A DNA stretch of 64,000 nucleotides from a virus. The notes under the pieces are model-generated. The model was not told the DNA's origin, did not search any database, and worked only from the letters and a program-made list of their open reading frames with translations. Below, in pieces: positions 1 through 18,898 of this stretch; positions within the stretch are counted from its first letter, which is position 1, and the number at the start of each line of letters is the position of its first letter. The position numbers and the translations under genes are program-made. The DNA lies in IMG/VR virus record IMGVR_UViG_3300005080_000005; one strand, 5' to 3'.

Positions 1-305
1 TTGTTGAACCCCTCGTACTGTTCTGTAAAGAGATGTTAGAGAAGTATGAAAATGACTGACAGAAATAATAAATACACAGTTTATGATTATGTCGGTAAAA
101 CCTTATAAATGGATAACAATTATATTGACGACTATAACATAGGCCAAGATGAGGTACAATGAGCGAAGAAGTAATTGAGAGTGTGACAGAAAAGAAGAGA
201 GCAAAACGACAAAAACCAGAAGACTTTATAGGTTAGAAAAGTGAGGATGGAAGATTAGAAGTTATAGGCATACATGGAAAACAAGGGAATAGTACAGCAT
301 TTAAA

Positions 306-1202
306 GTGACTTGTACAGAGTGTTCTAAAGATAAAGAGTTATTTCCAGATGGTTATTTTGTTAGCACAAAAGGACGTTTAAAGGCAGGACAGAAGCCTTG
401 TGGTTGTGCGTTTAATCCAAAATGGGAAGGTTGTCAGTACTTGATTTTAGCTAGTAGGGTAGGAGAAAAGAAAGGTTTTATTGTTCATGGTTTTGTTGAA
501 GAATTTAAAAATCAAAAGACAAAATTAAACCTTGAGTGTTTAAAAGATGGGTACAAATGGACTGCAAGTATTACTAAGGTTATTAACAACGGTAGTGGTT
601 GTCCTAAATGTGGTATTGAACAAAAGAAAACACCAGAACCTGTTGCATTACAAAAATGTATTGACATCTGTAGAGAAATGGACTATGATGTTGTTGGTTT
701 TGTTGGTGGTTATAGAACTGCCCGCAAAACTATATTTGAGTATATTTGCAAAATACATGGAAAACAAAATGTTTATTATAACGACTTTGTAAACCACGAG
801 GCACGTTGTAGTGGTTGTTGGAAAGATAGACAAAAAGAGCTAGGGAGTCTTTATGGATATTATCCTGAAAGAAAAGATGAACAAGATTTTCTTTATGTTC
901 TAAATTTCAACAATAAGTTTATCAAGGTTGGAAGATCTTTCGATGTAAATGAAAGGATTAGAAATTTGAGGAAACCTTCAGAATCTGGAATCAAAAAGAT
1001 TTATAAACTAAGAATCTTTACAGCAACCCATCAAGAAATTTATGATTATGAACAAGAGTTACACACTGAACTACGTTCTCGAAACTTTCAACACTATGTT
1101 GATTGGAGTACTGAGTGTTTCGAGAATGATTCTTTGTTTATTCTGAATAAACTACTTGACAGCAGATTAGTTACAGGGAATTTCGAAGAAATTTCTTATT
1201 GA
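306..1202 (+). CDS. Zn-ribbon repeats + T5orf172 (GIY-YIG-like) domain protein, putative homing endonuclease, paralog 1 (N-terminally interrupted)
   Basis: Paralogous to 17900-18898 and 29548-30550 (same CxxC/CGC triple-repeat N-half and FLYVLNFNGKFIKVGRS T5orf172-like C-half). The reading frame runs back to ATG 159 but holds an in-frame TAG at 234-236 where paralog 2 has TGG (Trp). Confidence 0.6.
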   Translation: MTCTECSKDKELFPDGYFVSTKGRLKAGQKPCGCAFNPKWEGCQYLILASRVGEKKGFIVHGFVEEFKNQKTKLNLECLKDGYKWTASITKVINNGSGCPKCGIEQKKTPEPVALQKCIDICREMDYDVVGFVGGYRTARKTIFEYICKIHGKQNVYYNDFVNHEARCSGCWKDRQKELGSLYGYYPERKDEQDFLYVLNFNNKFIKVGRSFDVNERIRNLRKPSESGIKKIYKLRIFTATHQEIYDYEQELHTELRSRNFQHYVDWSTECFENDSLFILNKLLDSRLVTGNFEEISY

Positions 1203-2225
1203 CAACCGTAGTTTATGAGAGTGTTTAATCAAGCATTTAGATCGACCTTCGAAGAATCCTTCTTTTATGTTTTACCTTTCCTATTTGTCTGTCCTAGATA
1301 CTGCATATAATGCACTGTAAGGCATCTGTAGTCAATTCCTACAGTAAAGGAGTACCCTTGTAGCCTAGATGGCGTGGAATGCAATATAGAGCTTCCTATT
1401 AGGTTTTAACATCTATCAATTTTTGAGACCCAAATATAAAAATGAGATCCAAAGACCATACCCATTTTCATCACCAGCGTCCAAAATTTTAGGGTCTAGA
1501 TCAACTTTTGAGTTTCGAGATTGAAAAATGAGAACCAGAGGACATTTTCAAATTTTCAATTTGTGTTTCAAAAAATTTTTAAAAATTAAAATTTTTGAGA
1601 TCCAGAGAGAAAAATCGTTTTGGCCTTTGAAATCTGGAAAAATTTATATAGAAGGGAAAAATGATATTCAGAATCCAAAAGAGAAATTAAGCACGAATGA
1701 TAATCATTCTCGTTTGGCGAATAGCGGGCAGGTCTCACCACCCTACCCTTTAGCTCCTCGGCTGCGGCTCACAGGCTCCGCTCTTTTCTGCTTTTCCTCA
1801 CTTCTTGAATACAGTATAACCCAAGGGCTCACATAGTGCAAGCCCAAGAGTGAGAAAAATTTAAATTATTTTCTACTGTAGCCTTTTGACAGCATGAACT
1901 CAAATTGGGCAGGATCCTGGATGTCTTGTTCCGTCATTTTGCATTCTAGATAACCTTTGTCTGTTTTCTTTATAAAAGAATGCAGACCGTTATCAAAATA
2001 TGACCAATTGAATCCGTTAACTTTAGGCAGACCCTGATAAAACGCTTTATCATGTTTCATTTGTTTAATCTCTCAAATTTAGTTTGGGTTTTTCTACAGT
2101 CCGGCTTTGTTTGCCGTTGAGATAGATGCTATCAAAGCAGATAACCAAGATCAACCTCTTTCGTCGTTTTCTTTTCAGAAAAATTTATCCTCTTTTTGTT
2201 GGCTTGCATCTTGATCTTCTGATCT

Positions 2226-2246
2226 ACCCTTGCTATAGTCACCACA
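2226..2246 (+). promoter_or_regulatory. Extended -10 promoter of the conserved cassette class (cccTTGCTATAGT)
   Basis: TGnTATAGT extended -10 matches the cassettes at 7.3, 7.7, 8.1, 10.1 and 10.7 kb; followed by perfect hairpin GTGAATCaaagGATTCAC (2268-2285). Confidence 0.4.
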
Positions 2247-2334
2247 TTGAAACGAGTTGCCCAATTTGTGGGTGAATCAAAGATTCACGGCATAACCGCA
2301 AAAAACAAGGTTAACGAAAGAGGGGTTGACTGAG

Positions 2335-2487
2335 ATGTTCACATTGATTTTAATGGAATATGAAAACAGCTTGCCAGATGTTCGCCACGATCTTACAATG
2401 ACCCAAGCCTATGAGATTGCATCAAAGGGAGGATACTACAAAGCACAAATCATTAACGAATATGGGGGGATTGAATATGAATTCTAA
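2335..2487 (+). CDS. hypothetical small protein (50 aa)
   Basis: ATG preceded by GAAAGAGGGG SD-like sequence; first ORF after promoter 2226. Confidence 0.35.
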   Translation: MFTLILMEYENSLPDVRHDLTMTQAYEIASKGGYYKAQIINEYGGIEYEF

Positions 2488-2848
2488 TCTGGATATGAAT
2501 AACGCTACTTTTGCACAGCGTCAGGAATATGCATCCAGCTTAAAAGATTACAAGATCTTGGCTAATTTTGACGGACTACTAGTTGCAATCGATAAAAATC
2601 ACCCTGTTAACCTGTATGTAAGCGATCTACCAAACGGCAGGCGGACGGGCATATCAGTCACAGGCAAGGCATATGATTTTGATGGTTTTAAAGGGATTAG
2701 GGCGATTCACCTAGATACACTCAGGTCAAGGTTGCATGATGTCTGTCCGTCGTGGTATGAGCGCCAGCTAGACAAAGAAGGCAAGGGCTCAATTAAGGAA
2801 GTTTTAAAATTTATAAAAGATAATCACCCGATGAATAAGGGCTCTTGA
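2462..2848 (+). CDS. hypothetical protein
   Basis: ORF track 2411-2848; internal ATG 2462 preceded by G-rich SD. Confidence 0.5.
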   Translation: MGGLNMNSNLDMNNATFAQRQEYASSLKDYKILANFDGLLVAIDKNHPVNLYVSDLPNGRRTGISVTGKAYDFDGFKGIRAIHLDTLRSRLHDVCPSWYERQLDKEGKGSIKEVLKFIKDNHPMNKGS

Positions 2849-2849
2849 T

Positions 2850-3038
2850 ATGCAATCTATTACAGTTCTGGAGTTGTTGCTTAAGGTTCACGACTGGCAA
2901 GGCGGAACAATCGGGCAAGCCTTTAGGGAGTTGAAACAAGAGCACAAGCAAATGATAAAAGATCTTGCATTTTCTGGTAATGCTGTTTATACTGTTAAAA
3001 CTGAATCGGCTTTTATAGTGAGTTGCTGGAGTTTATAA
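2850..3038 (+). CDS. hypothetical protein
   Basis: ORF, tightly packed with neighbours. Confidence 0.45.
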   Translation: MQSITVLELLLKVHDWQGGTIGQAFRELKQEHKQMIKDLAFSGNAVYTVKTESAFIVSCWSL

Positions 3039-3039
3039 A

Positions 3040-3240
3040 ATGAAAAAGTTTGCGAAAGTAGCAGGCCAATTTGTAACAGATGGGAATTTCAATAAAATTA
3101 AACTCACAAAAAGCCAAGCCCTGTCTATCGCAAAAAGGCAAACTAAACGCCTAGGCTTACAAGGTTGTAAAATGCAGTATCATATTAACGAAAACGATCA
3201 ATTCTATTCTGTAATTATTCACACTGGTGAAATAAAATGA
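3040..3240 (+). CDS. hypothetical protein
   Basis: ORF, 1-nt spacing to previous gene, ATGA overlap with next. Confidence 0.5.
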   Translation: MKKFAKVAGQFVTDGNFNKIKLTKSQALSIAKRQTKRLGLQGCKMQYHINENDQFYSVIIHTGEIK

Positions 3241-3425
3241 ATCCAATTAAAAATATTGAAACTGAAAACTTTTGTCAGTTGGTTGCTAATGAATATCAAG
3301 TTAACCCGTTGAAAGCTAATCAAATTTTTGCTGATTTTGTCAATGAAAAGAAGCTAGTTAAATGGGCTTGGCTTGCAATGAAAGACCGTGTACAATACCT
3401 TATCAAGCAAAACAAAGGCGATTGA
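3237..3425 (+). CDS. hypothetical protein
   Basis: ORF overlapping previous stop (ATGA). Confidence 0.45.
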   Translation: MNPIKNIETENFCQLVANEYQVNPLKANQIFADFVNEKKLVKWAWLAMKDRVQYLIKQNKGD

Positions 3426-3604
3426 TTATGAAAACTTTCTTATTCCATGTTGAATTTTGCGAACATGAAAAAAGCTGATTACGAAAAATGTTTGGAAGTT
3501 TAACAAAGAACCCGACCCGTACCCACTGGGCAAAGAAAACGTTTGACGATTTTGTTAAAAAACATGCTTTGCAACCATAACCACATCACTCTGGAAAACA
3601 TCAC

Positions 3605-3808
3605 ATGCGCCAAGTCACAAACCAAACCTTTCAAAGCAACTATAACTCCGGCTATGAAGAGAAAATGAAGGAGATCCGCGAAACCGGCTTCAATGCAGCA
3701 AGAGATAGTTTTAATAAAAAGTATCCTATCTGTGTCCCCATCCCCACGATGGATCGCTATTACACATCATGCGGTGAAGTTGACGCGCTCATGGATTTTA
3801 TCAACTGA
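3605..3808 (+). CDS. hypothetical protein
   Basis: ORF. Confidence 0.4.
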   Translation: MRQVTNQTFQSNYNSGYEEKMKEIRETGFNAARDSFNKKYPICVPIPTMDRYYTSCGEVDALMDFIN

Positions 3809-3929
3809 TTTTATTCGAAAAAAGGGGCCGAAAGTTATCTATAGTGCCGTAAAGTGTGTATTTGGCGTAAAAAGGTAAAAGAACATCTGAGAAAAGGTGA
3901 TCATTTCATTATGACATAATCCGACAATA

Positions 3930-3957
3930 GCCAGCCTAACAAGCTGGCTTTATTTTC
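3930..3957 (+). terminator. rho-independent terminator
   Basis: GCCAGC ctaacaa GCTGGC followed by TTTATTTT. Confidence 0.6.
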
Positions 3958-4143
3958 ATTTGATATTAAATTTACTCTGGACGTGCTACCGGCGATCAAC
4001 CTTCGATCTTTTGCAAGTATCTTAGCCATATTTAAAGACGATGGAAGTCTGTTTTCTAGTTTGTAAGTGTATTATAAACCCTGACAAAAGACAAAGCAAG
4101 CATTTTACATAAAAATAAATCAGAATATTTTTAGAAAAATATC

Positions 4144-4172
4144 TTGCACAATGATCGGCCTTGCATTATAGT
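4144..4172 (+). promoter_or_regulatory. sigma70-like promoter
   Basis: TTGCAC - 17 nt - TATAGT, 38 nt upstream of ATG 4210. Confidence 0.5.
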
Positions 4173-4209
4173 CATAAACAGATAAACAACATTAACCAAG
4201 GGATCAACC

Positions 4210-4434
4210 ATGAATAACAAAGATTTTCAAATTATCCAGACAAGTAAAAAAGGTGTTAGCATCTTTTGGTGGGTCTTTTGGCTCATTGTTTTCTGGCCTT
4301 TTCTTGCTTTTGTTGCCATAGTTCACTTGGGAAGTGAAACGATCTATCATGTGCAATACAGGAACAGCCAAGGGAAAATAGTTGTGGACAAGATGACAGA
4401 AAAAGAATATACTCGTTTTGTAAGTATGATGTAG
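4210..4434 (+). CDS. small membrane protein
   Basis: ORF with hydrophobic stretch VSIFWWVFWLIVFWPFLAFVAIVHL. Confidence 0.5.
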   Translation: MNNKDFQIIQTSKKGVSIFWWVFWLIVFWPFLAFVAIVHLGSETIYHVQYRNSQGKIVVDKMTEKEYTRFVSMM

Positions 4435-4488
4435 TTAAATCTAAATTGATTATTTTACCTATCTTATTGAAATTAAAAGGATTCTATC

Positions 4489-4674
4489 ATGGCGATCAAA
4501 CAATCTTATAATTGTTCGGCTTTTGTTCAAACTAAAAGCAATCCTGACGCTTTTATAAATCGAGAGGTTATTGCTGAAAATTTTGAACAAGCACAACAAA
4601 AGTTTAACGTTATCTTGCAAAATTATTCCTTTGTAAGTATTGACTTTGATACGATTAGCGTTAAACTTAAGTAA
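4489..4674 (+). CDS. hypothetical protein
   Basis: ORF with AAAGGA SD. Confidence 0.4.
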   Translation: MAIKQSYNCSAFVQTKSNPDAFINREVIAENFEQAQQKFNVILQNYSFVSIDFDTISVKLK

Positions 4675-4703
4675 GTTAAACAAGCATTAAAGGGGTGATT
4701 ATA

Positions 4704-4925
4704 ATGTGTCAAATATTTTTCAAAAACAGGGAAGCTGCCCGTTATGTTAAATCCGGCAAAATTCAAGACAATGGCAGGGACTCTATAAAACGTTGGAGCC
4801 GTCTTGTAGAAGCAAAACCGACACAAAAAGATCTATTGCCATTGACATGCACAAAAGATTATCGTTATCCTGAAAAGGCTAAGATTGTTCAAGTTTTGAA
4901 GGTTAAGAAAAATAAACTGAAATAA
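4704..4925 (+). CDS. hypothetical protein
   Basis: ORF track 4695 (GTG); ATG at 4704 after AAAGGGGTGA. Confidence 0.4.
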   Translation: MCQIFFKNREAARYVKSGKIQDNGRDSIKRWSRLVEAKPTQKDLLPLTCTKDYRYPEKAKIVQVLKVKKNKLK

Positions 4926-4936
4926 GGAATATTAAA

Positions 4937-5185
4937 ATGCTTACGAAAGAACAAACAAATATGATTTTGGACATCCTTGATTCATCTCATGTTAAACATA
5001 TTACCATGAATGACAGAACCTCGGAATATTGTTATATGGTATCTACATGTGATAGTGATGTAATATGCTTTCATAAGGGAAAATTGGAACCTTGGTATTT
5101 TGACAAGATTGTTGTGTGTGATAGTACCATGACAAAAGAGCCGATTTATAAAGATTGGTATATGACTGTTGCATATCATAGTTAA
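4937..5185 (+). CDS. hypothetical protein
   Basis: ORF with AAGGAA SD. Confidence 0.45.
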   Translation: MLTKEQTNMILDILDSSHVKHITMNDRTSEYCYMVSTCDSDVICFHKGKLEPWYFDKIVVCDSTMTKEPIYKDWYMTVAYHS

Positions 5186-5418
5186 TTTTAGTCTGGATTC
5201 TACCTTTAAACTCTGGTAGAATCCTTTCTAAAGTTAAATTATGATAACAGGAGACAGATAAATCAGTTGACTTACTAGAAATGATAAAGATCACAAATGA
5301 AATACTGGGCAGGATTAAACAAGATCAATAAATAAAAGCTTGCACCAATAGAAAAGTTAGTTTATAATGTTTTCACCAAGTCGGGAATGGTTCCCGATAA
5401 AAACAAAGAGAAAATGTC

Positions 5419-5862
5419 ATGTCAAACAAAATCGAAACCCTGAAATCTGAAATCGCCGATCTGGTTGAACAGCTTAATGCAAAGAAGCAAGAGCGCGCTT
5501 TGAATCTCGCATCTCTGGAAGTTAAGAAAGAGGAGCTAGATAATTATGAAATTGATCCAGATTCTGTGGAAGATAGTTATAAAGATGCGCTAGATGAAAG
5601 TTATGAGATGCCCAACGGATGGTCTTACTCTGATGTCCTAGAACGGATGGATCCGACTATGTATCGCTGTGGATTGAATGATTATGCTGACAGTTTTGAC
5701 AAAGAGGAGTTTGAAGATTACAAAGAATTGCAAGAGGAATTTGAAGAACTTGATAACATTAATGATCAGTTGAATGATGAGATCTTTGATTTGGAACAAG
5801 AGATCGAAGAAAAGCAAGAAGTTCTGGATGATTTGATTGTTGAAGCTGATATGCTTTATTGA
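5419..5862 (+). CDS. highly acidic coiled-coil protein (candidate DNA mimic / host-takeover protein)
   Basis: 147 aa, very D/E rich (EELDNYEIDPDSVEDSYKDALDESYE...); AAAGAGAAAATG start. Confidence 0.55.
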   Translation: MSNKIETLKSEIADLVEQLNAKKQERALNLASLEVKKEELDNYEIDPDSVEDSYKDALDESYEMPNGWSYSDVLERMDPTMYRCGLNDYADSFDKEEFEDYKELQEEFEELDNINDQLNDEIFDLEQEIEEKQEVLDDLIVEADMLY

Positions 5863-5885
5863 TACGAAATAGATTAAGATAGTTG

Positions 5886-5923
5886 TTGATCTTCTGATTT
5901 GATGCGCTTATAATGAGCGCATC
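5886..5923 (+). promoter_or_regulatory. sigma70-like promoter with -10 inside an 8-bp perfect palindrome (operator-like)
   Basis: TTGATC - 17 nt - TATAAT; GATGCGCT tataatg AGCGCATC hairpin/palindrome spans the -10. Confidence 0.45.
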
Positions 5924-5956
5924 TTGTAGAGGAAAACACCAAGCAAAGGTAAAGTT

Positions 5957-6184
5957 ATGAAAAACTGGAATAAAACAAAAGAAGATATTAAAAACGAGTA
6001 TAATCTGAGCGTAAAACTGATGGCGACCCGCTTTTATTATGACAGACGGGATGACACTAATACCCTGTTGAATGATCTTTATTATAGAATTGAGAAAGAG
6101 GGTGGCAATCTGGATTTTGTCTCGGATGTCTCAGATTATATTGACAACTTGAAAGATTATGATAACAGACCATTTTATGATTAA
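5957..6184 (+). CDS. hypothetical protein
   Basis: ORF with AAAGGTAAAG SD. Confidence 0.45.
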   Translation: MKNWNKTKEDIKNEYNLSVKLMATRFYYDRRDDTNTLLNDLYYRIEKEGGNLDFVSDVSDYIDNLKDYDNRPFYD

Positions 6185-6288
6185 AGAAAACAAAAATAAA
6201 CCTTGCAATATAAAATCAGTTTGTTAGAATAGATTAAGAGGTTAGGGAATAATCCCTAACTTAAGACCAAACCAAAGGAATAAACACC

Positions 6289-6567
6289 ATGAAAAACCAA
6301 ATCAAAGCCGTTGTTAATGCAATCCTATCCCATAATGCTGGCGAGTATGTTTACTCTGATGTTAAACAATTGTTTACCGATGTTGCTAACAACTTTGATA
6401 ATGATTTTAATGTTGATTTTGATGGCCGTGAATATCGAGTTATCTCTAATGATGATATTCTTGATATCATGAAAGATGAGTTGTCAAGTGATACATATGT
6501 TTTGGGCTGTGGTTCTGACTGGTTTATGTCTGATGTGACAGGGATTCCCGTTGATGCAAGATGTTGA
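6289..6567 (+). CDS. acidic hypothetical protein
   Basis: ORF, D-rich; AAAGGAATAA SD. Confidence 0.5.
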   Translation: MKNQIKAVVNAILSHNAGEYVYSDVKQLFTDVANNFDNDFNVDFDGREYRVISNDDILDIMKDELSSDTYVLGCGSDWFMSDVTGIPVDARC

Positions 6568-6686
6568 CAGCTTTTGCTGAGGGTATTATTTCACACGATG
6601 GCGCAGGGCATCACTTTAGTGGTTATGATTTTAGTGAAACGGAAGCGGGGGATTATACTGTCTTTTGTGTCAACTAAGGGCTAGTG

Positions 6687-7025
6687 ATGGAGCATGACTC
6701 TTTAGACTGGGCGATTATAGTTATCTTGCTGTTGATTATGATCGCCCCCGTCGCCGCTGGTTTTCTGTTTATAATCTGGTTACTCAAAAAGGTTTATCAA
6801 ACTATGAATACAAACAACGAGCGCTATTGTTATCTAGCATACAAACACAACCAAACTGGACAAGTTTTTGATAGTGGTATTCAGCTTGAAACTGAAATTG
6901 ATCAAACAGAAAATAATGTCATTAGTTCCGGACATTGCATCTTGATCCGCTATAATACAAAAGAAGTCGAAAAGCTGAAAGGATGGATTCAAGCCTTTAG
7001 AATTGAAAACAATGTAATTTGTTGA
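6687..7025 (+). CDS. membrane protein
   Basis: N-terminal TM (WAIIVILLLIMIAPVAAGFLFIIWLL); ORF track starts at GTG 6684. Confidence 0.5.
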   Translation: MEHDSLDWAIIVILLLIMIAPVAAGFLFIIWLLKKVYQTMNTNNERYCYLAYKHNQTGQVFDSGIQLETEIDQTENNVISSGHCILIRYNTKEVEKLKGWIQAFRIENNVIC

Positions 7026-7091
7026 CTTAATAAAATCAAGAGAATCTAGTAGTTTGTTGGTTAACTTATAAATCAAGAGGAAATAAAAATT

Positions 7092-7238
7092 ATGTCTTTT
7101 ACCAATAGTAATGTAACCAAGATCCAAAAGAAGGCACGTTTCAACCATGAGGAAGCTTCGGAGCGACTCACAAAAGGGCGGAAATTGAACAAGACCCAAC
7201 GGAATAACAAGCGGGGTCTGTGGAACGATGAAGAATGA
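7092..7238 (+). CDS. small basic protein (48 aa)
   Basis: ATG after GAGGAAATAAAAATT; K/R-rich; not in ORF track (<60 aa). Confidence 0.35.
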   Translation: MSFTNSNVTKIQKKARFNHEEASERLTKGRKLNKTQRNNKRGLWNDEE

Positions 7239-7261
7239 AAATAAATTAAAATAATCTTATT

Positions 7262-7335
7262 GGAGGGCTTGCCAAGAGCAGCCCTCTTTTGCTATTATGT
7301 AATCAGAAGGGGAGGCAAGGGCCAAACCAACCCAC
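7262..7335 (+). promoter_or_regulatory. conserved hairpin/extended -10/leader cassette (copy a)
   Basis: GGGCTTGCCaagagcaGCCCTC hairpin, tGCTATTAT -10, leader ATCAGAAGGGGAGGCAAGGGCCAAACCA. Confidence 0.5.
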
Positions 7336-7355
7336 AATGCGATAAGGGGCTTGTT

Positions 7356-7505
7356 ATGATCGATATGACCGACATTGTTTTTGGCTGGAAGTCAAACTCC
7401 GGTAAATATTTTTTAAGGAAGAGGTATTGGATCGGTGTCGGATTTCAGTTTGTTGATTTTGAAGTTTCTTCAGACGTATACAATCTATGGAGTGATGTAA
7501 ACTAA
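7356..7505 (+). CDS. hypothetical small protein
   Basis: In frame with ORF track 7260-7505, but the 5' part is the regulatory cassette; ATG 7356 after AAGGGG. Confidence 0.45.
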   Translation: MIDMTDIVFGWKSNSGKYFLRKRYWIGVGFQFVDFEVSSDVYNLWSDVN

Positions 7506-7711
7506 TGTGGGTAACATATTATTTATCTTATGATCTGGGCTGTGTTCGCATCCCGTACCCTATGAAGAAGGGATGTAATCAGCACCCCGAAGATATTCTC
7601 CCCATATATAGATATGACTGGAAATTAATCCCTGAGTTTCCCGACAATATCCGCAGAGAGTATGCCCTAGGTTTCGGAGATTTTGTTGTGGTAGAAGAGG
7701 AAGTGATCTAA
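7505..7711 (+). CDS. hypothetical protein
   Basis: ORF, TAATG overlap with previous. Confidence 0.45.
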   Translation: MWVTYYLSYDLGCVRIPYPMKKGCNQHPEDILPIYRYDWKLIPEFPDNIRREYALGFGDFVVVEEEVI

Positions 7712-7723
7712 TAATTTAAAAAT

Positions 7724-7800
7724 TTTGCTTTAGGGGCTTGCATAGATGCGAGTCCCTTGCTATACTTATTTCATCAGGTGAGGCAAGGGGCCGAACCAAA
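7724..7800 (+). promoter_or_regulatory. conserved hairpin/extended -10/leader cassette (copy b)
   Basis: GGGGCTTGCatagatgcGAGTCCCTTGCTATACT ... ATCAGGTGAGGCAAGGGGCCGAACCAAAGGAG. Confidence 0.5.
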
Positions 7801-7812
7801 GGAGATGAGAAA

Positions 7813-8013
7813 ATGAAAAACTTGATCAAAAAAGCACAACAATTTGCCCATGATGTTAATGCCAACGGATGGGATTATTATCCTGATGAGATGGAAGGTT
7901 TCCCTGAAAACTTTGGAGTTTATAATTACGAGGATGGCATCTGGCTAGTAGATACTAAAGACGAAGCATGTATGTATAAAGCTGAAAAATTAGTATTACT
8001 CATTAAGCATTAA
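7813..8013 (+). CDS. hypothetical protein
   Basis: ATG 7813 directly after cassette SD AAAGGAGATGAGAAA. Confidence 0.5.
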   Translation: MKNLIKKAQQFAHDVNANGWDYYPDEMEGFPENFGVYNYEDGIWLVDTKDEACMYKAEKLVLLIKH

Positions 8014-8060
8014 TTTTTACTGAAAGGAATACATAAAATTATCTGATCTATTTTGTTTTA

Positions 8061-8110
8061 AGGGCTTGCCAAACGGCAAGCCCATTGATATACTTATTTC
8101 AAGAGGTATG
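8061..8110 (+). promoter_or_regulatory. cassette copy c (hairpin + TGATATACT, leader truncated)
   Basis: GGGCTTGCCaaacGGCAAGCCC perfect hairpin then TTGATATACT. Confidence 0.4.
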
Positions 8111-8266
8111 GCGATTTTTACTATAAAAACAATCAAATAAAATATATTGATCTTTAAGTTGTGACATCTTATAATGGTATTGTCGGTTCTACCGATGAAG
8201 CAAAGCTTCACAGGCTAAGCCTGCAAGTCACTTCTTAAGGAAAACACTAACAAAAGGATCAACAAA

Positions 8267-8401
8267 ATGATGGCAATGATTTTTGGATGTATGCTTGGCT
8301 TGGTTTTTGTTGCAACCATCAAGGGTGTTCAACATAACAATAAAGTGATGAAGGAGTCCGCCAAACTGCATGAGGAAAACATGAAACAAGCTTTAAGTTA
8401 A
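8267..8401 (+). CDS. small membrane peptide (44 aa)
   Basis: ATG after AAAAGGATCAACAAA; hydrophobic MIFGCMLGLVFVATI. Confidence 0.35.
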   Translation: MMAMIFGCMLGLVFVATIKGVQHNNKVMKESAKLHEENMKQALS

Positions 8402-8455
8402 TAATTTTTGGTTTGTCAATAGTTAATAAGGCAACAATATAGCAACCTAAAAGGA

Positions 8456-8656
8456 TTGGATGTTATGGTAACGGCTCAAATTTTCGGACTTGTCCTGACA
8501 GCTTGCAGCATTAACAATTCAGGTGATGTTGAGTGTGAAGATCACGTTTTGTCAGTTGTATTTCGTGAATCTGTTTGCTATACTCAATTGGAAAAGGAAA
8601 TTCCTAATCCTTTGGAAATGGAATCCTTGAAATGTATTATTCTGGATGACTATTAA
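8456..8656 (+). CDS. hypothetical protein
   Basis: ORF with AAAAGGATTGG SD. Confidence 0.4.
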   Translation: MDVMVTAQIFGLVLTACSINNSGDVECEDHVLSVVFRESVCYTQLEKEIPNPLEMESLKCIILDDY

Positions 8657-8664
8657 TTAGTGTT

Positions 8665-8907
8665 ATGTATTACAAAGAGGGAACCTTTATGGTATTACCC
8701 AAATCAATAATAAATTATTGTAGAAACAATAATATTCGCTATGAGCAAGAATCTGAAACAGATTTTGAATTTATTGCCCCAGCTTTTAAAGTTTTCAGTA
8801 CAGAGAGCAAATACAGAGTAATTGAAATATACGAACAAGTTGGTTTAAAATATTGTAGGAAACCGGTAGTAGAAATAAAAAGATTACTTACTTTGTTTAA
8901 TCAGTGA
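8665..8907 (+). CDS. hypothetical protein
   Basis: ORF. Confidence 0.45.
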   Translation: MYYKEGTFMVLPKSIINYCRNNNIRYEQESETDFEFIAPAFKVFSTESKYRVIEIYEQVGLKYCRKPVVEIKRLLTLFNQ

Positions 8908-8943
8908 AAAGGATTACCAAAATGATTACTGAGGTTTAATAAG

Positions 8944-9243
8944 ATGAACAACAAATTTAACAACCCTTGGAATGGTGTGGCAGGGTTTACTGATTTGGGT
9001 AGTTTTACAGATAGTAGTGGAGAGTATTACAAGTTATATTGTTTTCCTCAAGCTATCGAGACGGCTATAGGTGCAAGGTTCGGAGAAGATGGAGATTATA
9101 TTTCTGGAAGTTTGACATTAAAAACAAACATCCTGTATGGGAGTTCTGAGCCTATTATCGAAGCAGTTAAACGGATGTACAAATTAGGCATGATTAAGGG
9201 AGAAGTGACTAACCCTAACAGACAAGTAATCGTTAAAGGTTGA
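8944..9243 (+). CDS. hypothetical protein
   Basis: ORF. Confidence 0.5.
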   Translation: MNNKFNNPWNGVAGFTDLGSFTDSSGEYYKLYCFPQAIETAIGARFGEDGDYISGSLTLKTNILYGSSEPIIEAVKRMYKLGMIKGEVTNPNRQVIVKG

Positions 9244-9246
9244 ATT

Positions 9247-9393
9247 ATGCATAATTTCAAACTAAAATCACTGGCAGCTCCTAAAAGCGTTTCAGGTTCG
9301 ACATTAACAACACCGGATCGATTTGCAATGATTGCCAGATGTGCTAGACTTAAACGGGAACTAAAGATTAACCGTAAGATCTTAGGGATTTGA
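9247..9393 (+). CDS. hypothetical small protein (48 aa)
   Basis: ATG 3 nt after previous stop. Confidence 0.4.
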   Translation: MHNFKLKSLAAPKSVSGSTLTTPDRFAMIARCARLKRELKINRKILGI

Positions 9394-9403
9394 GGGATTA
9401 ACG

Positions 9404-9556
9404 ATGATTAACAGAAAATCAACATATAAACATTGCACAATGAAATACTCTGATTATATTAAATTGATCGGTTATCTGTCCGCTAATTGCACGGATAAAG
9501 ATTATCATGTGGCAATGATTAAACTTGATAAATTTGAAATTATAGTAGAGGATTGA
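9404..9556 (+). CDS. hypothetical small protein (50 aa)
   Basis: ATG after GAGGGATTAACG. Confidence 0.4.
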   Translation: MINRKSTYKHCTMKYSDYIKLIGYLSANCTDKDYHVAMIKLDKFEIIVED

Positions 9557-9561
9557 ATATT

Positions 9562-9732
9562 ATGAATAGCGTATTTGTAGTAACAGATGAATCAAAATCA
9601 TGCTATGACGCTGGAGGGATCTTTGTGGGTGTATTCTCTACTTATGAGCAGGCAAAGGCGTATATTGACAGACTAGGCGGAAAGATTGGAAGAGATTACG
9701 ATATAACAGAAGAGTTCATTAATTCACTTTAA
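9562..9732 (+). CDS. hypothetical small protein (56 aa)
   Basis: ATG after AGAGGATTGAATATT. Confidence 0.45.
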   Translation: MNSVFVVTDESKSCYDAGGIFVGVFSTYEQAKAYIDRLGGKIGRDYDITEEFINSL

Positions 9733-9748
9733 ACTAAAGGCAAACACA

Positions 9749-10012
9749 ATGGCTAATAATATATACTACAAATTTATCTGCATTGACGAACAACATGCAA
9801 TCATAGCCGAACAACAATTGAATAATGCAAAAACAAACAAGATCAAAGCTAAACGCTTAGGTCGTGCTGTTGTCGTTTGTATTAGCGGGGACAGCATAGA
9901 ACAAAATGAACTCGCTGAGATTAATTACCTAGTATCTTCTGTGAGAGTCCATGCAATGGCTTATAATGATGATTTGAGCCAGTATGATAGGGAAGAGATA
10001 GATAAAATTTAA
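9749..10012 (+). CDS. hypothetical protein
   Basis: ORF with AAAGGCAAACAC SD. Confidence 0.5.
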   Translation: MANNIYYKFICIDEQHAIIAEQQLNNAKTNKIKAKRLGRAVVVCISGDSIEQNELAEINYLVSSVRVHAMAYNDDLSQYDREEIDKI

Positions 10013-10065
10013 AATGTGTTTGATTAGCTTATAAACCGTTACACATATCACAAAATAACTGACTT

Positions 10066-10150
10066 ATTCTGCTTTAAGGGCTTGCCGTTTGGTGAGCCCT
10101 TGGGCTATACTGTATTCAGAAGGTGAGGCAAAGGCCGAGCCAGAGGAGAT
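10066..10150 (+). promoter_or_regulatory. conserved hairpin/extended -10/leader cassette (copy d)
   Basis: GGGCTTGCCgtttggtgaGCCCTTGGGCTATACT ... TTCAGAAGGTGAGGCAAAGGCCGAGCCAGAGGAG. Confidence 0.5.
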
Positions 10151-10157
10151 AAAGAAA

Positions 10158-10379
10158 ATGAAAATCGACCCAAACACCAAAGCTTTTAAACTTGTTAAAT
10201 TCCAGGCAAATTATCATGTGTATCAGGTTGCGGCTAATGGTGCAACATTGCAACTTTTGAATAACAATCAAACCCCTGTTGTCGTTGGTTCTGTTATTGA
10301 ACTTCGCAACAGATTGGGGAGACTGTCTAGTAAAGGGTTGATTCCCTATGAGATCTTTAATCTCCCTATAGGATTCTAA
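10158..10379 (+). CDS. hypothetical protein
   Basis: ATG 10158 after cassette SD; in frame with ORF track 10089. Confidence 0.5.
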   Translation: MKIDPNTKAFKLVKFQANYHVYQVAANGATLQLLNNNQTPVVVGSVIELRNRLGRLSSKGLIPYEIFNLPIGF

Positions 10380-10392
10380 CGAGTATAAGGAA

Positions 10393-10416
10393 GGCCCTTC
10401 GGGGCCTTTTCTTTTT
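10393..10416 (+). terminator. rho-independent terminator
   Basis: GGCCC ttcg GGGCC + TTTTCTTTTT. Confidence 0.65.
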
Positions 10417-10734
10417 CTGAAAAATCAGAACTAAATACCTATATCGTTTTTTGAGATCTAAACTAATAAATGGTTTTTCTGATTTACAAACAGTAAATGT
10501 GAATATTGGAGACTGAAAGGATCAGGAGGTAAGGAGAAAAATGATGTAAAACATATTGAAAATATCAAATAAAATTTAAATATGTAGACAATATGCAAAT
10601 TAAAAATTATTTGAAAACTTAAACAGGATTAACTGATTAAGCCTATAAAGTTAGCCACAATATCCAGGAGGAGTCAAGACCCAACGGAAAATAAAATTAT
10701 TTAAAATAAGTTGGATTTTCAGGTTGCAAACAGG

Positions 10735-10800
10735 ATCCCCCTGACTATAATAGTAGTCAGAAGGTGAGGCAAGGGGCTGAACCGGTTGGTTTTCTTGGGG
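10735..10800 (+). promoter_or_regulatory. conserved -10/leader cassette (copy e, no upstream hairpin)
   Basis: TGACTATAAT then GTCAGAAGGTGAGGCAAGGGGCTGAACC. Confidence 0.45.
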
Positions 10801-10806
10801 TGATTT

Positions 10807-11238
10807 ATGTCTAAATGTGTTAATTCTATCCTTTCTTTTTCTTGCACCTGCTGTGGTCGCTCTGTAGTAAAACCTGCCTTTATTGGTGGAAAACCTTATG
10901 GTCAAGATTGTGCAAAGAAAATCAAAGGGGTTGCCTTTGGTAAAAGCAAGGCTGTGTTTGTAAAGGCTGAACAAGTATCCATTGACATGGAAAACTATTT
11001 GCCTTCTGCTGTATATGAAATTGAAGGTGTTCCCCAAAAATTTAAAATTACAGCCCCGTTCCCAGCCCACGTGATAGCACAAAAAGGTGGATGCATAGCG
11101 GATTACCTTCCACAAGATGCGCTGATGGTGATAAATCACGAAGGGAAACCGGTGTTTAAAAGTTTGTCTATCTCGTTGAAAGATAGCGCCTTGACCTATA
11201 TTGATAAGTATGGAAAACAGACAACTGTCCAAATCTAA
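10807..11238 (+). CDS. hypothetical protein (Cys-rich N-terminus)
   Basis: ORF downstream of cassette e, upstream of terminator 11254. Confidence 0.55.
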   Translation: MSKCVNSILSFSCTCCGRSVVKPAFIGGKPYGQDCAKKIKGVAFGKSKAVFVKAEQVSIDMENYLPSAVYEIEGVPQKFKITAPFPAHVIAQKGGCIADYLPQDALMVINHEGKPVFKSLSISLKDSALTYIDKYGKQTTVQI

Positions 11239-11253
11239 TAATCGCCTCAGAAT

Positions 11254-11279
11254 AAACCCCTGCAAAGGGGTTTTCTTTT
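11254..11279 (+). terminator. rho-independent terminator
   Basis: AAACCCCT gcaa AGGGGTTT + TCTTTTATC. Confidence 0.65.
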
Positions 11280-11667
11280 ATCTAAATTTTAGATGAGAAA
11301 AGTTATCATTTGCCTTTTGACAACCTATCACAAAATAATATAAAAAGCAAGCATGAAAATTTATGCAGCAAAAGTGACTAAAAACACACCTCATAGAATC
11401 GTCAATATTCAATAGTTCACAGGTAGCCAATACACTTGTATGGACTAGCCCTCCGAGCTAACAGAACGCAATGCATAGCGTTATACACCAAACGCCATCT
11501 AACCAAACCTAAAAAATTGCTACTTTGTAGGTAGTTAATGAGAACAGTTACCAACAAAGACAGACTGGAATATAAATAAATATAAAATAAAGGATGAGAC
11601 AAATAAAAATAAAATAACAGAATAGAATTATTACTTTTTATTTTCTTGAAGGGGCGAGCCTACATTT

Positions 11668-11709
11668 AAATATTATTTGGCGAGGCGGAACGGCTCGCCA
11701 AATAATATT
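11668..11709. terminator. large perfect palindrome, putative bidirectional terminator in convergence zone
   Basis: AATATTATTTGGCGAG gcggaacgg CTCGCCAAATAATATT, 16-bp perfect arms flanked by A/T runs on both sides. Confidence 0.5.
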
Positions 11710-12964
11710 ATATAACCAAGTCAATTTTTAATATTCAAATTATTCAGGGAATAATTATCATAAAATTGCTTTGTTTATATATTTCGGCTCTCTAAATATT
11801 AATCTTTTAATAGTTGTTCGTTAGCCTCAATTATATAAACAAAATTATCTGGCGATAATCTTGGTTATATAATATTATTTATCTTTGATAAATATGAGGG
11901 CTAACTCATACCCCTTTAAGAGTAATATTATACTTTCAGAAGATGAGATTTTCACACGAATAATTTATTATTTGTTTGACAAATCGCAATCTTCGATACT
12001 CACAGAACAATTGTTGCCTTAAACTTTCTTTTATGCTTGCATTCTTGCATTGCAAACAGCAATAAAAACAGTAATACAAAAGGCAATCATTATCATTTGA
12101 GGGCACAGCCCTCAATTGATAGTCAGACGAATTGAGAATCTAGATGTTAATGATTATCATTTAGCGCAAGGCGATTTAGACCAACTCCGAAGGCAACTAG
12201 GCTCAAGCAGTTTTCAATCCTATCTGTTATCTCTCACATCATCAAATCATTATAGTTGTAAGTCGCAACCTCTTTTATAGTAAGCTGTCTAGCTTATTTT
12301 ATCCAGTTTGTAAATCATTATTTTCTAGCTCCGAATCTCATTCGGTCTCAGTTTATAACTGCATATAACGTATCTTATGTTAAATCAAGTTATCTTGAAA
12401 CATTGTATCTTGTTCGGCTCAATTGAATCTAATTATTAATGGTTATCATTGTCATTTGTATCAATATTGTTAGTCTCTTTTGAATCTGTTTATGTTGTCA
12501 TCTGTCAGGGTAAAGCATCTTGCAAAAGTCCAGTTAATTTTAAAAATAAATATAGTTTAAATTGTAGTTTAATAATTAAATAATGTTTTAATGCGATTGT
12601 TAATAGCAATGATAATAATTCGTATTCAGGGCGACTCTGACAAGCAAGAATCATGCCATTGTTGATATAGTTTCACCTGATATTTGAGAATTATAGTGAT
12701 AATGAGAATGAGTCGTATTTGGGTTGTCTAACCCCTTGGAGGTAGACCTTTAATATTGAATTAACATACAATTTCCAACCAAGCTATGTAGACTTATAAC
12801 AGTCGTTAAATCATTAGCAGCACTGGATAAACCTGTACGGATATTTTCTAGATGTAGAAATCTATAGGAGGGGCTATACATTAAACTTGTCTGGCGGGGG
12901 TTGGGGTATATTCCAAGCAAAAGAAAAGACGACACTCTTTCGAGGTCGCCTCATATTGGTTATA

Positions 12965-13297
12965 TTACTTATTCAATTGTTCCTTCAGTTTCTTATTCTC
13001 TTTGACTATCTTGTCAATCTTATATTTACTCCAACCTAACTCTTCATATTTATCCCTGAGTGTTTTAATTTCGTCTCTGTCAATCTCTCGTAATGTTTGT
13101 TCAGGATAAATGATTAGTTTACCGCTATCCCAATCAAAACCTAAGTTAATATCTTTGATATTTGTACTAGGTGTTCCACCAATTAAACCAACTTTGTGCG
13201 AAGCAATAACAACTTGTATCTCTTCTAGATTTAATCGTTGTCTAACAGCCTGTTGTTCCATTTGTTCTACTAGCTCTTTCAGTTCCGATAGTGTCAT
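12965..13297 (-). CDS. hypothetical protein
   Basis: ORF, last gene of the minus-strand block. Confidence 0.5.
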   Translation of the reverse strand: MTLSELKELVEQMEQQAVRQRLNLEEIQVVIASHKVGLIGGTPSTNIKDINLGFDWDSGKLIIYPEQTLREIDRDEIKTLRDKYEELGWSKYKIDKIVKENKKLKEQLNK

Positions 13298-13307
13298 TTT
13301 AGCTCCT

Positions 13308-13637
13308 TTATTTCAGTGTACCGTTCTTGTTGTATTTGTCAGTCAACACTAAATAGTTATAGCTGGTTCTTCTCATGTTACCTAAACTTAATGTCCACAA
13401 TTTATTAATCTGAATCAATACACCTTTCTTAATTAGATATTGTAAATCTGGGTCTCTGCTGACAATCAACTGGTGCCTCCGATTAACAATAAAACCATAA
13501 GGTATGTGCCAACTCATTTCCTTTGTTTGTGTTTGAAGCCACAATAGCAATTGTGTTCTCCGTTCTTTGCCAAAAGGCATGTTCTGTATCTCTCTAAACT
13601 TTTTACTACTGTTTTGGATAAACTGCTCTCTGTCCAT
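13308..13637 (-). CDS. hypothetical protein
   Basis: ORF. Confidence 0.5.
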   Translation of the reverse strand: MDREQFIQNSSKKFREIQNMPFGKERRTQLLLWLQTQTKEMSWHIPYGFIVNRRHQLIVSRDPDLQYLIKKGVLIQINKLWTLSLGNMRRTSYNYLVLTDKYNKNGTLK

Positions 13638-13782
13638 TTATACTCTCCTTTTATTCATAAGACTAAACCTCAACAAGGTCTAACCAAGTCGAGGCCAATA
13701 TGATTTTACTGAAACGTCGGTTTCTGTCAATATGCATATTATAATGTTAATGTCGTGTGAATGATAACTAGTGTGAGGTCGC

Positions 13783-17899: not shown

Positions 17900-18898
17900 T
17901 CATTGTTTTATTTCTTCTAGACCACAACTATCCAGAAATTTATTGAGAACGAACAGTGAATCATTTTCAAAACACTCTGTTGACCAATCTACATAATGTT
18001 GGAAGTTTCTTTCTCGTAACTCGTTATGTAGTTCTTGTTCAAAATCATAAATCTCTTGATGTGTTGCTGTGAATATTCTGAGTTTGTGAATCTTTTTGAT
18101 TTTAGATATAGACTTTAAAGCATCAACTCTTTTATCAACAAGAAAAGACCTTCCAACTTTAATGAATTTACCATTGAAGTTCAAGATGTACAAGAAATCA
18201 GTTTCATCTTTTCTTTCGGGATAGTATCCATTACCATTTCCATCTTCCCTTAATCTTCTAATGGTTTCATCTTTAGCACAACCCCGACAACGTGTTCCTT
18301 TGTTTACAAAATTACCATATCTAACATTCTGTTTTCCATGAATTTTGCAGATGTACTCAAAACGAGAAGTGTTGTTTTTATATCCACCAACAAAACCAAC
18401 AACATCATAGCTCATTTCTTTACAAATATCAATACATTTTTGCAATGCTTCTTGTTCTGTTGGCCTATATACACCAGCACACTTTGAACAACCTTTGCCA
18501 CTATTAATAATATCATTAATACTTGCAGTCCACTTATGCCCATCTTTCAAACATTCAAGGTTTAGTTTGGTGTTTTGATTTTTAAATCCTTCAACAAAAC
18601 CATGAACAATAAACCTGTCTTTTGATGCTCTACGGGCTAATATTAAATATTGAAAGTCCCTCCATCTTACATTTTTCCCACAACCACAAGGTTTGATTTC
18701 TTTAACCAAACTACTTTTGACACTAACAAAATATCCATCATGGAATAATTCAGGATCTTTGGAACATTCCGTACAGGTAACTTTAAAAGTGGTATGCTTC
18801 GATTTCTCAATAATACCAATAACTTCTAGTTTTCCATCTTTACTTTTCCAACCTATGAAATCTTCAGCTTTTTGTTGTTTCTTTTTATTTTCAGTCAT
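17900..18898 (-). CDS. Zn-ribbon repeats + T5orf172 (GIY-YIG-like) putative homing endonuclease, paralog 2 (intact)
   Basis: 332 aa; three CxxC...CGC/CxKC zinc-ribbon-like repeats then FLYILNFNGKFIKVGRSF T5orf172/MUG113-like motif. Confidence 0.7.
   Translation of the reverse strand: MTENKKKQQKAEDFIGWKSKDGKLEVIGIIEKSKHTTFKVTCTECSKDPELFHDGYFVSVKSSLVKEIKPCGCGKNVRWRDFQYLILARRASKDRFIVHGFVEGFKNQNTKLNLECLKDGHKWTASINDIINSGKGCSKCAGVYRPTEQEALQKCIDICKEMSYDVVGFVGGYKNNTSRFEYICKIHGKQNVRYGNFVNKGTRCRGCAKDETIRRLREDGNGNGYYPERKDETDFLYILNFNGKFIKVGRSFLVDKRVDALKSISKIKKIHKLRIFTATHQEIYDFEQELHNELRERNFQHYVDWSTECFENDSLFVLNKFLDSCGLEEIKQ

Follow-up and report, generated by a model that had tools for sequence, protein, structure and literature searches.

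A family of PeSL-like putative early-expression cassettes with a conserved leader hairpin in an Aeromonas phage of the genus Plateaulakevirus

A short element, typically found in front of small genes, is repeated several times in the left part of a 64,000-nucleotide (nt) stretch of viral DNA, the IMG/VR record IMGVR_UViG_3300005080_000005; the whole of this stretch is referred to below as the window. The original prediction described six copies, at about 2226, 7262, 7724, 8061, 10066 and 10735, built from a hairpin (in four of the six), an extended -10, a leader (near-invariant in four) and a Shine-Dalgarno sequence (SD), and proposed an attenuator/antiterminator switch. Our analysis instead favours, with a probability of roughly 60%, modular early-expression cassettes of a Plateaulakevirus-type phage that would work like the promoter-early stem-loop (PeSL) cassettes. 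A PeSL-like terminator/promoter cassette is well supported. This cassette type is already known from T4-like phages; what is new is its occurrence in Plateaulakevirus and a conserved hairpin in the leader between promoter and SD.

A hidden Markov model (HMM) of the family was used to search the window and returned six members with E values of 4e-16 to 3e-29, at 1870-1786 (minus strand), 7240-7374, 7712-7832, 8037-8114, 10054-10172 and 10695-10789. The matches were 78-135 nt long and ended at or just past the ATG, except in cassette c and in the minus-strand copy. A covariance model of the leader gave four strong matches, at 7770, 10115, 10756 and 7302 (cassettes b, d, e and a; E 4e-10 to 8e-7), the next best in the window having E = 0.11; these are exactly the four copies to which a leader had been attributed. 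The repeated family is thus real for the copies at about 7262, 7724, 8061, 10066 and 10735, and its repetition is indeed far beyond chance, a 27-mer from the leader matching twice at three or fewer mismatches against 0 expected from 100 shuffles. The copy at about 2226 falls outside the family, with no HMM match at E <= 1 and no leader-model match. A minus-strand member and a diverged relative had been overlooked. The features are as follows (z, where given, is against shuffles).

1786-1870, minus strand: family member (HMM E = 5.5e-21; hairpin z = -4.0), kept in all relatives; hairpin GGGCTTGCA-CTA-TGTGAGCCC 1845->1825, -35 TTGCAC 1842->1837, -10 TATACT 1818->1813, predicted start ~1806.
2211-2239, plus strand: the sixth copy of the original prediction, a generic sigma-70-like site, TTGATC-17-TGC-TATAGT (promoter scan).
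6203-6262, plus strand: diverged relative; putative promoter TTGCAA-16-TAGAAT (TGn) 6203-6230, 5'-proximal hairpin GGUUAGGGA-AUAA-UCCCUAAC 6239-6262 (covariance model 14.4 bits; fold z = -3.0).
7240-7358, plus strand: cassette a; AT-rich element 7240-7261, terminator-like hairpin 7262-7286 followed by TTTTGC, -35 TTGCCA 7269-7274, -10 TGC-TATTAT 7293-7298, predicted start A7305, weakened copy of the leader hairpin 7309-7328 (GGGGAGGC..GCCAAACC), ATG 7356.
7712-7815, plus strand: cassette b; hairpin 7732-7757, -35 TTGCAT 7738-7743, -10 TGC-TATACT 7761-7766, predicted start A7773, leader hairpin 7777-7797 (GGUGAGGC-AAGGG-GCCGAACC), SD GGAG 7801-7804, ATG 7813 of a 66-aa ORFan.
8037-8114, plus strand: cassette c, a decayed half-cassette; perfect hairpin GGGCTTGCC-AAAC-GGCAAGCCC 8062-8083, -35 TTGCCA 8066-8071, -10 TGA-TATACT 8089-8094.
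10054-10160, plus strand: cassette d; hairpin 10076-10101 with U.G and G.U pairs, -35 TTGCCG 10082-10087, -10 TATACT 10106-10111, predicted start A10118, leader hairpin 10122-10141 (third pair U.G), SD 10145-10148, ATG 10158 of a 73-aa ORFan.
10695-10809, plus strand: cassette e, without GC hairpin; -35 TTGCAA 10724-10729, -10 TATAAT 10746-10751, predicted start A10759, leader hairpin 10763-10783 (one G.U pair), ATG 10807 of a 143-aa ORFan.

Read in register, the copies agree with the proposed order of a putative promoter, a 5' leader and an SD ahead of small genes. Each full cassette runs from an AT-rich block through the GC hairpin with the -35, the right arm in the spacer, the -10, TTCA, the leader and the SD to the ATG. 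A sigma-70-like -35/-10 pair with a spacer of ~17 bp and an AT-rich region upstream was found in copies a to e and in the minus-strand copy, and the AT-rich, UP-like block (AATAATTTAAAATAATTT) is conserved in the family alignment. The hairpin had been placed ahead of the promoter; however, the -35 (TTGCCA, TTGCAT or TTGCCG) sits within its left arm and its right arm lies in the 17-18 bp spacer, and the GC hairpin therefore belongs to the promoter DNA itself. The -10 hexamer occurs as TATACT, TATTAT or TATAAT, and the extension by TGn holds for a, b and c and not for the other copies. The predicted start is the A of the conserved TTCA, 7-8 nt past the -10, and is followed by four bases, the leader core, AAA, GGAG, about 9 nt and the ATG. 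Some 35 copies in nine related phages preserve the UP-like element, the -35 in the arm, the -10, TTCA, leader and SD alike.

As had been claimed, four copies contain the GC hairpin (z = -1.7, -3.8, -5.3 and -3.9 for a, b, c and d), which we call the spacer hairpin; its stability relative to shuffles is clear in b, c, d and the minus-strand copy and marginal in a. It is absent from cassette e (z = +1.1), upstream of which lie 430 nt of non-coding DNA containing a canonical terminator at 10389-10410. The arms vary among the copies and the nine relatives while complementarity is kept (GGGCTTGCC/GGCAAGCCC, GGCCCTTGC/GCAGGGGCC, AAGGGTTGCA/TGCAGCCCTT, GAGGGTTGCA/TGCAACCCTC). Counted over 31 distinct spacer hairpins, G.U pairs came to 56 in the sense fold and to 6 in the antisense fold, which had 14 single A.C mismatches instead, and the sense RNA fold was the more stable in 28 of the 31. 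This asymmetry indicates that the hairpin is constrained as RNA read from the upstream gene, a conclusion that is well supported. An inverted repeat over the -35 and the spacer also occupies the classic position of an operator, and it could be imagined as a DNA site for a dimeric repressor of the early promoters and not as an RNA terminator; the cassette of phage vB_AsaM-56, which faces a divergent gene and seemingly needs no upstream terminator, would suit this. However, the arms differ among copies of one genome, such that a single repressor could not bind them all, and the sense-strand bias in G.U pairs is unexpected for a double-stranded palindrome, which leaves an operator very improbable. 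The G.U signature is a simple sequence test for telling an RNA hairpin from a DNA operator where both overlap a promoter.

The spacer hairpin may thus be a terminator, an attenuator or a 3'-end hairpin of the upstream unit, overlaid on the next promoter. Past the stem the RNA is rich in U (4.8 U per 9 nt on average; at least 5 U in 18 of 31), the T-rich run overlapping TGn and the -10. A canonical U-run was seen in copy a, where UUUU adjoins the stem, and in many of the relatives (CUUUUGCUAUUAU, CCCUUUUGUUUAUA); those of b, c and d are weak. A simple terminator scan of the window did not list the main spacer hairpins.

The leader forms a hairpin of its own. Within 20-21 nt it folds as GGU, a tandem G.A/A.G, GGC, a loop of 4-6 nt, GCC, GA and ACC, and the minimum free energy (MFE) folds of the predicted 5' untranslated regions (UTRs) are the same in b, d and e (-7.7 to -10.1 kcal/mol). 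Compared with shuffles the fold stands out in b (z = -2.5) and d (z = -3.8), is not distinct in e (z = +0.8) and is weakened in a. The leader had been called nearly invariant, which is apt for b (two mismatches) and e (one) and too strong for a and d, where there is a 1-nt deletion with substitutions. Pairing was counted in 25 distinct copies, collected via flank homology or BLAST from the window, the nine relatives, two other Aeromonas phages and one metagenomic contig. In the alignment of these copies 98% of the cells are paired, and three of the six pairs have changed on both sides (U-A/U.G/C-G, G-C/G.U/A-U and C-G/G-C); the observed values were reached in none of 500 shuffles, and slid registers all collapse. 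In three variants the G.A/A.G positions have become U-A/A-U, yielding a continuous helix, as is the case at both positions of the hairpin at 6239-6262, a variant that recurs in relatives. Self-pairing of the leader, backed by these compensatory changes, is well supported.

Pattern scans of IMG/VR provided an independent comparison of stem versions, counting as context cases only those matches that lay between a -10-like hexamer and an SD with start codon. The original GGC/GCC gave 74 pattern matches and 15 distinct cases in such a context. The compensated GGG/CCC gave at least 120 pattern matches, with 5 distinct context cases among the matches listed, 4 of them behind textbook TTGAC(T/A)-N17 promoters. 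The uncompensated versions gave 72 pattern matches and no context case (GGG/GCC) and 65 pattern matches with one unconvincing context case (GGC/CCC). In Rfam, only two tRNAs reached the gathering score over the whole window, and nothing at E <= 10 overlapped a leader hairpin between 7200 and 10850. The leader hairpin is accordingly a compact, well-supported candidate RNA motif that is absent from RNA family databases. Two other readings of the leader were considered and dropped: an upstream open reading frame (ORF) from the GUG inside it, as 1-nt indels in the loop shift the frame between copies, and a CsrA-type GGA loop, as the loops vary freely.

The cassettes are also associated with mosaicism of the genes behind them. 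The proteins encoded downstream are unrelated ORFans of no known function that fall into many unrelated clusters, which rules out a cis-regulator of one gene family. One ORF family (7813-8013 of the window and its homologues) stands behind three different hairpin subtypes, and a single hairpin subtype precedes unrelated ORFs. Cassettes make up 6.9% of the sequence and hold 24 of the 160 ends of homology blocks, a 2.2-fold excess (p = 3e-4, or p = 0.02 when compared with intergenic DNA only; the endpoints are not independent). That mosaic boundaries fall at cassettes, and that leader copies are near-identical within genomes, could also mean that likeness is kept mainly by recombination or gene conversion, the cassettes being selfish or hitch-hiking repeats and the leader hairpin functionless. 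However, compensatory changes preserve the pairing, the promoter contexts of distant lineages hold compensated and not uncompensated variants, and conservation of the 5' UTR persists even where that of the promoter is lost; such an origin is thus highly unlikely.

Cassette c is, judged by comparison with phage phiA009, a deletion remnant. Its leader and gene have been deleted just past AGAGGT (~8106), whereas phiA009 retains at this site the leader and a 59-aa gene. At 8100-8140 cassette c now stands ahead of only a 10-codon remnant (ATGGCGATTTTTACTATAAAAACAATCAAATAA). This remnant corresponds to the C terminus of a membrane-like ORF of 59 aa, of which phiA009, TS9 and phiA047 have intact copies.

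The switch of the original prediction would rest on alternative pairing of the leader with the promoter hairpin, to both arms of which it was said to be complementary. This complementarity comes down essentially to GGCAAG of the leader against CTTGC(C) at the -35, and for neither arm does it rise above shuffles in the window (left arm p = 0.09-0.23, right arm p = 0.17-0.52). Averaged over the family, pairing of leader and left arm exceeds that of shuffles (-11.0 vs -6.4 kcal/mol), and in the GGCCCTTGC subtype of the relatives, the only one in which complementarity to the left arm is significant, GCAAGGG(G)CC of the leader is an (almost) exact complement of that arm (p <= 0.01). However, the hairpin occupies the -35 and the spacer, upstream of the predicted start, and mRNA begun at the cassette's own start would thus not contain it. 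In read-through RNA the terminator is transcribed ahead of the leader, which hence cannot block formation of the terminator during transcription, and the MFE folds of such RNA retain both hairpins separately. No signal was seen for the right arm, the same leader stands in other lineages behind spacer hairpins whose sequence is unrelated, and the leader pairs with itself instead. As the predicted folds show no mutually exclusive structures and the supposed competitor lies past both hairpin and start, we reject the switch as very unlikely.

A different pairing was noted in the read-through RNA of cassette b (7765-7809), the one copy examined in this respect. Here CUUAUUUC, comprising the -10 and discriminator, pairs in the predicted fold with the SD region GAGAUGAG, such that the SD would be masked in read-through RNA and free in transcripts from the cassette's own promoter.

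Homologous phages do not lack the leader; it is conserved in them. It was also found, without this promoter, in an unrelated group of 42-48 kb Aeromonas phages (vB_AsaM-56, 51, 56, 62AhydR11PP, 4_D05, phiA005, AsC4_1 and Avpx2/Avpd1), and among isolates its carriers are Aeromonas phages only, belonging to at least two unrelated groups. Many metagenomic phage contigs carry it behind varied promoters, a few bases past the -10 and 12-23 nt before the start codon; a distance of 7-11 nt from the -10 to the hairpin gives a predicted overhang of 0-4 nt. The exact 21-mer of the leader had no match in IMG/VR, and a degenerate pattern was required. A scan of 596 Gb of bacterial genomes, one per species, gave 28 scattered matches, none in Aeromonas or Vibrio, and thus no evidence for a host-derived leader or for carriage by prophages. 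Literature text searches on the motif sequence and on Plateaulakevirus returned nothing relevant.

Two further sets of matches stand apart. At nine loci from Rhodococcus genomes a conserved intergenic site before a 182-aa gene reads TTGACG, a 19-nt palindrome (ATAAACATCTGATGTTTAT), TATGGT, AGGUAAGGCACUCGCCAAACC, SD and GTG; the hairpin sequence is the same but lies 2 nt past the -10, and the match is probably a coincidence or a different use. Eight related IMG/VR contigs have the motif GGUGAGGCAGGACCGCCAAGCC ~26 nt ahead of the start of a 68-aa protein (MNNSPTNHLNQ..RTLERWRW), in GC-rich surroundings with no obvious sigma-70 promoter.

PeSL cassettes were described in the T4-like phages RB49/phi1, PST/T4 and nt-1/KVP40 as units of about 100 bp with an AT-rich region, a sigma-70 promoter, and an SD and ATG at the 3' end, in which a stem-loop with G-T pairs and terminator function lies between or overlaps the -35 and -10 (Arbiol et al. 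2010, PMC2839356; Comeau et al. 2014, PMC4122927). They sit in plastic, ORFan-rich regions marked by insertions, deletions, replacements and decayed 'half' copies; promoter activity, terminator activity and mini-circles were shown experimentally, and the nt-1 consensus is TTGYVH-N17-TAWWAT with the stem A3-4G3-loop-C3T3-4 (PMC2839356, PMC4122927). The cassettes of the window share the AT-rich region, the sigma-70-like promoter, a G.U-bearing stem-loop, the 3' SD/ATG, the size of ~100 bp and the ORFan-rich location, together with decayed half-copies (here cassette c) and an apparent association with indels and replacements, and the consensus and stem of nt-1 resemble the AAGGGTTGCA..TGCAGCCCTTTT subtype of the present family. 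In contrast to PeSLs, the carrier is a ~115-kb Plateaulakevirus and not a T4-like phage, the sole group from which PeSLs had been reported, a difference that concerns where PeSLs were described and not the mechanism, and the -35 hexamer is itself part of the stem. The PeSL papers report no conserved structured leader between -10 and SD, which here is the best-conserved part, and the leader hairpin also occurs outside PeSL-like cassettes. Activities were measured for PeSLs, whereas those of the present cassettes are read from the sequence. That the PeSL design recurs in a genus of Aeromonas phages unrelated to the T4-like ones suggests a general route by which large lytic phages add or exchange small early genes.

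On the PeSL-like reading, the upstream half of a cassette would serve twice. As RNA, the GC hairpin and T-rich run would end, attenuate or 3'-protect the transcript of the upstream gene; as DNA, the same bases would provide the -35, the 17-18 bp spacer and the (extended) -10 of a strong promoter for host sigma-70, backed by the AT-rich UP-like element. Transcription from the A of TTCA would produce a standard 5' UTR of ~45 nt, comprising 0-4 unpaired bases, the 20-21 nt hairpin, 3-4 A, a strong SD and the AUG. The leader hairpin would thereby give all cassette mRNAs one structured 5' end, which may protect them from 5'-end-dependent decay and insulate the ribosome-binding site from the variable ORFan downstream. 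With about 100 bp common to the copies, the cassettes could in addition serve as recombination points that move ORFans between phages.

The role of stabiliser and insulator is preferred on account of the distance of 0-4 nt to the predicted start and of the 5'-proximal hairpins that other early promoters of the window possess. These sigma-70-like promoters, at 5340-5400 and 8147-8200, are without the family leader and are followed by TCGGGAA-TGG-TTCCCGA (~5383-5399) and GTCGGT-TCT-ACCGAT (~8182-8196), respectively, which suggests that a structured 5' end may be general in early mRNAs of the block. Stabilising stem-loops at the 5' terminus of mRNAs from bacteria and phages, of the ompA type, were reportedly described by Emory, Bouvet and Belasco in 1992; the likeness lies in a hairpin a few bases from the (here predicted) 5' end of the mRNA and just before the ribosome-binding site. 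The ompA-type stem-loop differs in acting independently of its sequence, while the present stem keeps its sequence even between unrelated phages. The nut/boxB sites of lambdoid phages and the put sites of HK022, RNA elements near promoters through which RNA polymerase is modified, resemble the leader in being a short hairpin soon after an early promoter in a terminator-punctuated region. The present hairpin, in contrast, has 4-5 copies per genome, each directly before an SD, and a variable loop; no boxA-like partner was seen on reading the sequences, no N-like protein was identified, and there was no Rfam match. If the leader does stabilise or mark early mRNAs, it would offer a direct handle on phage success in the first minutes of infection and a ready standard 5' UTR for expression in Aeromonas and relatives.

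Several points weigh against the PeSL-like reading with its stabilising leader. Start sites, promoter strength and termination are predictions from the letters of the DNA; of the window cassettes, a alone shows a canonical U-tract adjoining its stem, and the T-richness of the tails is confounded by the composition of the -10. The leader pair counts come from an alignment fitted to the model, and its sequences are related. The enrichment of homology breakpoints is modest and its endpoints are not independent. An overhang of ~4 nt is the reported limit for 5'-end protection by an ompA-type stem-loop, and the window copies, with 4 predicted unpaired bases, would be borderline. Finally, a generic stabiliser leaves the conservation of the stem sequence across unrelated phages unexplained, and for this reason a factor-binding site is a serious rival.

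As such a site the leader hairpin would be recognised specifically by a host or phage protein, beyond being a generic structured end, and could be the target of a translational repressor of early genes, a site for a transcript- or polymerase-loading factor or a ribosome-docking element. The stem sequence, the tandem purine-purine mismatches and the position are kept behind unrelated promoters while the loop varies, and the conservation spans the second group of Aeromonas phages and many metagenomic contigs; moreover, the 5' arm AGGUGA is SD-like and the hairpin always adjoins the SD, 12-23 nt from the start codon. However, no candidate factor was identified and the downstream genes are unrelated. 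Fully Watson-Crick stems (UA for GA) and swapped pairs argue that recognition is not strictly base-specific, and the cross-lineage set came from a sequence pattern, which overstates sequence conservation. A recognition site is thus possible though rather unlikely. The second alternative of the original prediction, in which the leader is a shared site for a translational repressor or a signal for RNase processing, overlaps with this view and is likewise possible. We also propose, tentatively and as something that is itself doubtful, that the hairpin (A-GGU-RA-GGS, a loop of 4-7 nt, SCC-RA-RCC), lying within 0-4 nt of the beginning of early mRNAs and directly before the SD, might represent an undescribed family of phage cis-regulatory RNAs. 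Such a family would have moved horizontally between unrelated lytic phages and would be recognised by a conserved factor, of the host or the phage, to the advantage of early phage mRNAs.

By its database matches the window is DNA of an Aeromonas phage of the genus Plateaulakevirus. Megablast searches with 7000-11300 and 1-12000 matched Aeromonas phages only (TS9, phiA047, phiA009/019, 2L372D/X, 4L372XY, 4L372D, PAc and PhAER-3/4), at ~81-89% identity, in patches covering no more than 39% of the query. The phages closest to the window belong to Plateaulakevirus, measure 115-139 kb and have no family assigned. The left 11 kb of the window hold small plus-strand ORFs of no known function, whereas 13-53 kb hold minus-strand genes including NrdD, NrdA/B and DNA ligase. 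All family members detected with the HMM and the covariance model lie within 1.8-10.8 kb, and none was found in the replication and nucleotide-metabolism part at 13-64 kb. The same restriction was seen in the nearly complete genome of phiA009, which has three members in 113.6 kb, all inside the ORFan block.

Unlike the full cassettes, the minus-strand member is without a leader hairpin, and transcription from it would enter a non-coding stretch (1655-1806, minus strand) that is conserved in all relatives. This stretch has a variable (GA)n tract, the GC-rich hairpins GCGG..CCGC, AGCC-GAGG-AGCU and GGGUAGG..CCUGCCC, and a U-rich end. The transcript had no Rfam match at the gathering score or at E <= 10, and its fold z was only -1.05; it may be a phage small RNA.

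Some other features were noted outside the cassettes. Paralogous ORFs at 306-1202 (plus strand) and 17900-18898 (minus strand), with CapR, treble-clef zinc-finger and T5orf172 domains, resemble homing-endonuclease-type genes, and one of them flanks the block. Between this endonuclease-like gene and the block, non-coding DNA at 1418-1672 contains 3-4 spaced, iteron-like direct repeats, (A)AAAATGAGAYCCARAG / TTTTTGAGAYCCA, 67-172 nt apart. At the other side, the plus-strand block and the minus-strand replication genes converge on a 2.4-kb non-coding zone (11280-13700), which has a perfect 21-nt inverted repeat (11700-11720 / 11860-11880) and a 19-nt palindrome flanking a GC core (11669-11709). 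In the relative 4L372D (MK813939) the ORFan block is present twice in inverted orientation, with cassettes and genes mirrored at ~13.3 kb (plus) and ~20.9 kb (minus) of the locus, an inverted duplication that may account for the larger genome of this phage (138.7 kb) or be an assembly artefact.

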